The position numbers and the translations under genes were made by a program. From Escherichia coli (lineage in GTDB: Bacteria > Pseudomonadota > Gammaproteobacteria > Enterobacterales > Enterobacteriaceae), in the NCBI RefSeq assembly GCF_003334335.1, contig NZ_QOWQ01000165.1: a stretch of DNA of 632 nt; one strand, 5' to 3'. Below, in pieces: positions 1-632 of this stretch. Below the pieces are notes generated by a model, which was not told the origin of the DNA, did no database searches, and was given only the letters and a program-made list of their open reading frames with translations. Every line of letters begins with the position of its first letter. The first letter of the stretch is position 1.

Positions 1-632
1 GAGATTGACAACAGTCAGCTGAAGGACGAGATGGCGGAAATGCAGACCACCATCACAGAAACCCGCAATGAAATCACGCAGACGGTCAGTAAAACGCTGG
101 AAGACCAGAGCGCCACCATACAGCAGATACAGCGCGTGCAGAAGGACACAAATGATGACCTTGCTGCACTTTACATGCTGAAGGTACAGAAAACAAAAAA
201 TGGCATACCCTATGTTGCCGGTATTGGAGCGGGGATTGAGGATACTGATGGCCAGCCCCTGAGCAACATACTGCTGCTGGCTGACCGTATTGCGATGATT
301 AACCCGGAGGACGGCAACACCACGCCGTTATTTGTGGCGCAGGGGAATCAGTTGTTCATGAACGATGTGTTCCTGAAGCGGCTGTTTGCGGTGAGTATCA
401 CCTCGTCCGGCAATCCCCCGACGTTTTCCCTGACGCCGGAGGGCAGGCTGACCGCAAGAAATGCTGATATCAGCGGTAACGTGAATGCGAATTCCGGGAC
501 GCTCAACAACGTCACGATTAACGAGAACTGTCGGGTTCTGGGAAAACTGTCCGCGAACCAGATTGAAGGCGATCTCGTTAAAACAGTGGGCAAAGCTTTC
601 CCCCGGGACTCCCGTGCACCGGAGCGGTGGCC
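1..632 (+). CDS. J: Phage tail tip attachment / host specificity protein J (central tail fibre), internal fragment, partial at both ends; reading frame 1 with first full codon at nt 1, last full codon ending at nt 630
   Basis: Seen in sequence: frame 1 is open for 210 codons with no stop; codon usage is G/C-rich at third positions as in enterobacteria. Recalled homology, not a database search: the translated segment VAGIG...[20 protein letters not shown]...[42 protein letters not shown] closely resembles the corresponding region of lambda gpJ (recalled as ...[59 protein letters not shown]...[43 protein letters not shown]...AAFPRQ), roughly the last third of a ~1100-aa protein. The only competing ORF is a short antisense one. 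Confidence 0.88.

Follow-up and report, generated by a model that had tools for sequence, protein, structure and literature searches.

The window, by which we mean the whole stretch of 632 nt of DNA analysed here, is an internal in-frame fragment of a prophage gpJ gene and encodes J residues 831-1040 of 1156. Frame 1 of the plus strand is open across all 632 nt, and the remaining five frames are full of stops. The translated window is 100% identical to WP_137486890.1 (1156 aa) from E. coli JE86-ST02. At the DNA level, the window shows 100% identity to the gpJ genes of four complete E. coli genomes, JE86-ST02 among them, and 99.5% identity to phage PhiR5_1; some similarity is detectable in 3506 of 5426 complete E. 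coli genomes. Searched against NCBIfam, the full-length parent protein matched NF049904 (lambda_TipJ) with 2318.7 bits over residues 1-1156, passing the curated whole-protein cutoff of 1950 bits, and the window alone, being a fragment, reached 330.3 bits at profile positions 834-1041. The genes around J, in the annotated regions of both JE86-ST02 and PhiR5_1, follow the order tape measure-M-L-K-I-J-lom, such that J has the neighbourhood of a lambda-type gpJ, with tape measure, M, L, K and I upstream and lom and side-fibre genes downstream. The parent gene product is a genuine tip attachment protein J of the lambda type, and positions 1..632 (+) represent, according to the open frame, the DNA identity and the NF049904 match, a coding fragment of gpJ (tail tip attachment / central tail fibre) from a lambdoid prophage.

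In the JE86-ST02 region, the side-tail-fibre genes downstream of J and lom (L002, 9799-13655) carry the annotation of pseudogenes broken into fragments, with a gene for a YadA-like adhesin after them. At the equivalent places, the near-identical PhiR5_1 carries a hypothetical gene of 1572 nt that is intact, as well as a 'putative adhesin/invasin'. The side-fibre region of JE86-ST02 may thus combine prophage decay with a cargo adhesin. GenBank entry AF151091 (phage P-EibA, ECOR-9) starts exactly at window positions 593-632, with 40/40 identity, implying that this partial record begins inside the same J allele. When compared to PHROG families, the window translation (1-630) matched phrog_94, labelled 'head maturation protease' (E 7.5e-24), and phrog_15, labelled 'terminase large subunit' (E 4.4e-17), both matches spanning 190-200 residues of what is a tail-fibre fragment. 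These labels most likely derive from fused or mis-clustered family members and constitute an annotation hazard rather than biology.

Conservation of the core relative to its flanks

A first-pass annotation of the window had pointed to a strongly conserved J-family core at positions 205-531, said to match lambda gpJ almost residue for residue and to lie between divergent flanks. The existence of this core (205..531, +) was confirmed by alignment: it comprises exactly codons 69-177, corresponds to lambda 874-982 and is identical to lambda at 77/109 positions (70.6%), with 0 gaps. The window contains all four motif blocks, and so does lambda gpJ when the alternative residues listed by the annotation are allowed. 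The VAGIG block (residues 72-76) is identical at 5/5 positions, the second block (residues 109-128) at 18/20, the third block (residues 137-159, ending in NADISG) at 19/23 and the fourth block (residues 161-173) at 12/13. Counted on the phmmer alignment, the four blocks together share 54/61 residues with lambda, such that the near-identity described by the annotation applies to the motif blocks but not to the core as a whole. Compared to the core, the N flank (residues 1-68) is identical to lambda at only 10/68 positions (14.7%), with 28 gapped positions that correspond to a 28-residue indel, and the C flank (residues 178-210) at 13/33 (39.4%). The similarity between the window and gpJ is, judged by its phmmer scores (E 1.3e-61 against lambda gpJ chains, E 9.1e-70 against A8 gpJ), far beyond chance.

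At the codon level, the core differs from lambda with a dN/dS of 0.215 at dS ~1.1, supporting that it is under purifying selection; the annotation's proposal of a structurally constrained module agrees with a J-family module selected in this way. Synonymous divergence from lambda (pS) amounted to 0.57 in the core and was higher, about 0.8, in the flanks. The kind of domain match that had been predicted was also found, as the Pfam family PF09327 (Phage_Tail_Tip), which we take to be the family formerly named DUF1983, matched positions 118..501 (+; residues 40-167) with E 9.4e-24 and 84.2 bits, covering model positions 2-138 of 139.

We then considered conservation across the family, using a global alignment of 79 spanning representatives of 50%-identity clusters derived from 1.84 billion proteins. 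An earlier profile from local alignments had been biased, counting alignable residues only, and was replaced by this one. Among the 79 representatives, which were picked by similarity to the window and therefore bias conservation upward, the mean identity to the window was 0.30 for residues 1-68, 0.61 for residues 69-177 and 0.575 for residues 178-210, with an entropy of 1.45 bits in the core vs 2.37 bits in the N flank. In this set, conservation does not stop at nt 531 but reaches about residue 200 (nt ~600), and the best-conserved stretch of 109 residues begins at residue 94. Accordingly, the drop at residue 178 (nt 531) is, on the alignments, specific to the comparison with the lambda lineage, and the claim of divergent flanks holds on the 3' side for that comparison only.

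The picture changes again when the whole gene is viewed. Per 50-residue block, amino acid identity to lambda amounts to 64-74% in the core vs 52-88% in the N-terminal hub domains, and pS values elsewhere in the gene are 0.37-0.78, similar to that of the core. By these measures, the core does not exceed the hub domains in conservation, and the flanks are the hypervariable parts of the protein. The core is thus strongly conserved in a local sense, relative to its flanks, but not on the scale of the gene, the rest of J being as conserved or more.

Mosaic junctions and the chimera fusion site

The DNA-level match of lambda to the window covers exactly positions 286-531, and those of other lineages cover 193-602 or 280-602; altogether, BLAST match boundaries on the window fell at 193, 280/286, 519/531 and 601-606. 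Mismatch maps and 15-codon identity profiles of individual J genes delineated two natural crossover zones. In the first (466..510, +; codons 156-170), the J gene of PhiR47_1 follows lambda to window nt ~465 and shows only three isolated mismatches between there and nt 510; from nt 511 onward, RBD included, it is the same as the sequence analysed here. In the second (126..150, +; codons ~42-50), located in the distal helical shaft, PhiR12_1 J, having 4 mismatches to the window in nt 1-125, becomes divergent downstream. As read from these alignments, the window J is itself a mosaic.

The first of these zones coincides with a site used in phage engineering. Chimeric gpJ proteins (A8, 1A2) have been fused at lambda residue 964 (Brodel et al. 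2024, PMC11338833, Methods), which in our alignment is equivalent to codon 159 (475..477, +), the Gly of NADISG (G159). The coincidence of the natural crossover with the engineering site represents a small but useful confirmation for the design of chimeric lambda particles. It also bears on the suggestion of the first-pass annotation that the core could serve as an anchor for comparing J variants, a use already made of it in the Brodel et al. fusion. The A8 chimera (9WCA/9WCB), which consists of lambda 1-964 and a natural OmpC-binding C-terminus (PMC11338833), is the best PDB match of the window (E 9e-70). Upstream of 964, A8 is lambda sequence; past this point, the window is 70.6% identical to A8 vs 54.9% to lambda, and the NNVTINENC...VKTV block is common to the window and A8. 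The RBD of the parent J, most of which lies outside the window, is 58-60% identical to the OmpC-binding RBD of A8 and 41-43% identical to the LamB-binding RBD of lambda. These values are too divergent for a receptor assignment, and use of OmpC cannot be assumed.

Sharp mosaic junctions within and at the edges of the core, together with partial DNA matches having diverse end points and a core pS vs lambda below that of the flanks, might indicate that core conservation results mainly from recent recombination, with a shared patch being homogenised between J genes under little structural constraint. We consider this improbable, given that the core is separated from lambda by a dS of ~1.1 at a dN/dS of 0.215, reflecting long divergence under purifying selection, and that conservation holds over the 79 clusters at 50% identity. 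Moreover, the core and the rest of the gene have similar pS values, implying that replacement or fast evolution affected the flanks instead. A narrower and somewhat less doubtful, though still speculative, scenario is that codons ~156-170, the distal CSF block, owe their conservation not to structure alone but also to selection on the nucleotide sequence as a favoured site of crossover, through which lambdoid prophages shuffle RBDs, with the second site shuffling shaft lengths. In that case, the present allele, with its long shaft and an RBD that resembles A8 but has diverged by 40%, would be a recombinant of uncharacterised receptor specificity.

Position of the core within the central fibre

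Four parts make up the C-terminal portion of lambda gpJ: the FNIII domains, the alpha-helical shaft (AHS) at 809-861, the central straight fibre (CSF), which is a prism of beta sheets, and the Ig-like RBD (Ge & Wang 2024, PMC11101478). Because the end of the AHS in lambda (861) is matched by window residue 56, the N flank corresponds to the distal AHS (1..168, +; residues 1-56), a hypervariable segment whose counterpart in lambda is 834-861 and which contains an insertion of 28 residues. It is followed by the CSF beta-prism (169..573, +; about residues 57-191, equivalent to lambda 862 to ~996, the distal edge being approximate), as assigned from the AHS-CSF-RBD order, the strands of an AF2 model and the conservation profile. 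The construct in 8JVM extends as far as window residue 190. The remaining positions (574..632, +; residues ~192-210, approximate) probably contain the first strand and linker of the Ig-like RBD, for which AF2 places a strand at 192-198, then a confident beta-sandwich.

The AF2 monomer model of J 800-1156, which is of medium quality (pLDDT 70, pTM 0.43), contains a helix that ends at about window residue 37, then a segment rich in strands and, from ~192-213, a beta sandwich modelled with confidence, which is the order of the expected domains. The boundary between CSF and RBD can be taken from this monomer only approximately, and no residue-level boundary is given in the text of PMC11101478, PMC10721106, PMC12617516 or PMC13043305. 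In a Foldseek search, the top hits of the model were 8XCJ, 9WCA, 8XCK and 9WCB. Its superposition on the solved trimers was poor (TM 0.35-0.42), as expected because a monomer model was compared with an intertwined trimer. Sequence matches to solved central-fibre chains were clear (9WCA, E 9e-70; 8XCJ/8XCK, E 3e-62; 8IYK, E 1e-61), so the mapping onto published lambda tail-tip structures that the annotation had proposed as a check could be made with 8XCK, 8XCJ and 8IYK. Considering its 60-70% identity to these chains, the window segment would be predicted to form a trimeric intertwined prism as well.

In comparison with the lambda CSF (~862-996; 8XCK closed, 8XCJ/8XCI open; PMC11101478), the window thus contains the same domain at the same position of the same protein family, and motif blocks, gene neighbourhood and Pfam family are shared with lambda gpJ. 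It differs in its helical shaft, to which the pairwise alignment gives 28 additional residues, and in following a different lineage from residue 178 on. As the bulk of the CSF beta-prism, the flagged core constitutes the distal shaft proper and lies next to the RBD only with its last ~20-40 residues.

This placement bears on the interpretation offered by the first-pass annotation, in which the core probably joins fibre shaft and RBD as a junction or adaptor. The distal end of the core, from NADISG on, does sit just above the RBD, the lowest beta layers of the lambda CSF gain hydrogen bonds with the RBD side upon receptor binding, and engineered as well as natural swap points are found at this end, such that the idea fits the last residues of the core. 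As an account of the whole core it is highly improbable, since lambda 874-982 covers nearly the whole CSF prism, which begins right after the helical shaft (861), and the proximal half, with the HepS trigger 902-933, lies in the middle of the shaft. Even less credible is that conservation is imposed by an overlapping opposite-strand element or an RNA structure, because the substitution pattern fits coding in plus-strand frame 1, and the one candidate, an 81-codon antisense ORF with a TTG start inside the conserved coding region (348-593, -), had no hit in NCBIfam and is probably spurious, an Rfam search of the window giving no credible match (best E 0.53, 18.6 bits vs a gathering score of 39) and repeats in the window being short and at chance level only.

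The observation of a conserved core is therefore confirmed and its interpretation partly supported, the feature being the CSF / Phage_Tail_Tip domain of lambda-type gpJ, which has been described before. Domain, structure, conservation, use in chimera fusion and role as an immune trigger have all been published, and the feature carries little weight as a discovery. Its value is practical, as a reliable landmark for aligning J variants and for marking the start of host-range modules; in the window, the RBD-side sequence leaves lambda at residue 178.

Candidate functions of the prism and related fibres

We consider it very probable that the flagged stretch is the beta-prism CSF shaft of a lambda-type gpJ, a constrained prism that would serve as signal relay, as a patch for module swaps and as an epitope for HepS. 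By analogy with lambda, three chains would intertwine into a tapering beta-sheet prism below the three-helix shaft, with the Ig-like RBD at the tip. The prism sequence would be held fairly constant, as each of its residues must be accommodated inside the trimer and within the stack of beta layers. The lambda prism also relays the receptor signal, with RBD opening creating new hydrogen bonds at the prism base and a twist spreading upward. There, the helical shaft then flips and partly turns to beta (841-861), the FNIII strings are released and the tip opens. Both the domain scheme and the signal-transmission mechanism have been described for lambda (PMC11101478), the latter having been demonstrated for lambda with LamB only; the window J has a shaft that is longer by 28 residues (pairwise) and a different RBD. 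An interlocked, mechanically active trimer of this kind would explain the purifying selection seen in the core. The flanking helical shaft and RBD presumably evolve, or are exchanged, much faster than the prism, which for this reason would appear as a conservation island: under purifying selection, the prism is conserved relative to the shaft, as reflected by the identities of core and N flank among the 79 representatives. Being common to divergent J genes, it further provides the homology patch for host-range module swaps, both natural and engineered.

An exposed Phe-containing strand of the prism would in addition represent the epitope sensed by the HepS abortive-infection nuclease. Lambda J 902-933, centred on the surface-exposed F924, binds and activates HepS, a HEPN anticodon nuclease of Gifsy-1, whereas F924S phages escape HepS and Gifsy J proteins evade it with an Ile at the 924 position (Sargen et al. 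2026, PMC13043305). In sequence terms, triggering requires a Phe at lambda 924, Ile or Ser variants being inactive, and the presence of Q922 (PMC13043305). The equivalent of the trigger peptide is found at window positions 289..384 (+; residues 97-128), with 25/32 residues identical, and a chain of 9OIK matches window residues 93-128. Both determinants are retained, Q922 as Q117 (nt 349-351, +) and F924 as F119 (nt 355-357, +), and a Phe occupies the lambda-924 column in 63/79 representatives. Compared to the lambda trigger (9OIK), the same 32-mer carries seven substitutions in the window, mostly in the N-terminal half of the peptide, and lambda strand 916-925 differs only by I923L. With Phe kept at the 924 position, the window allele is predicted, by analogy with lambda, to trigger HepS-type defences, i.e. 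the prophage J should be sensed by them.

Beyond lambda-type J proteins, weak but significant matches (E 2.6e-4 to 1.9e-3) were obtained with J-like central fibres of other siphophages and an F-type (F2) pyocin tail fibre (9L9P, 23GD, 25VF). They extend over window residues 12-131 (34-393), i.e. the shaft and proximal prism, at very low similarity, and do not cover the distal motif blocks. Such remote matches suggest that the module of proximal prism and shaft extends to phage-tail-like bacteriocins.

The AHS is length-polymorphic. In pairwise alignment the window J has 28 more residues than lambda, and the segment opposite window residues 1-56 comprises 56 residues in 28/79 representatives and 34 residues in 18/79, with outliers from 21 to 90. 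At window positions ~124-192 (residues 42-64), the AF2 monomer predicts beta strands with low confidence (pLDDT 44-59). This region partly overlaps lambda 841-861, which is helical in the closed fibre and forms a beta sheet in the open state (PMC11101478), and the modelled strands could represent either a metamorphic segment or model noise. A ~33-residue repeat inside the prism was also considered and rejected, since its local alignment scores were no better than those of shuffles (fractions 0.16-0.79). Three large proteins, P0097, P0105 and P0146 (3079, 1256 and 1004 aa), whose PHROG hits are tail or tail-fibre proteins, match window positions 382-561 (residues 128-187) 5-14 times each, and a re-run resolved 6, 6 and 5 separable domains, respectively. 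These multiple matches point to a ~50-residue unit similar to the distal prism that has been tandemly amplified in other fibres.
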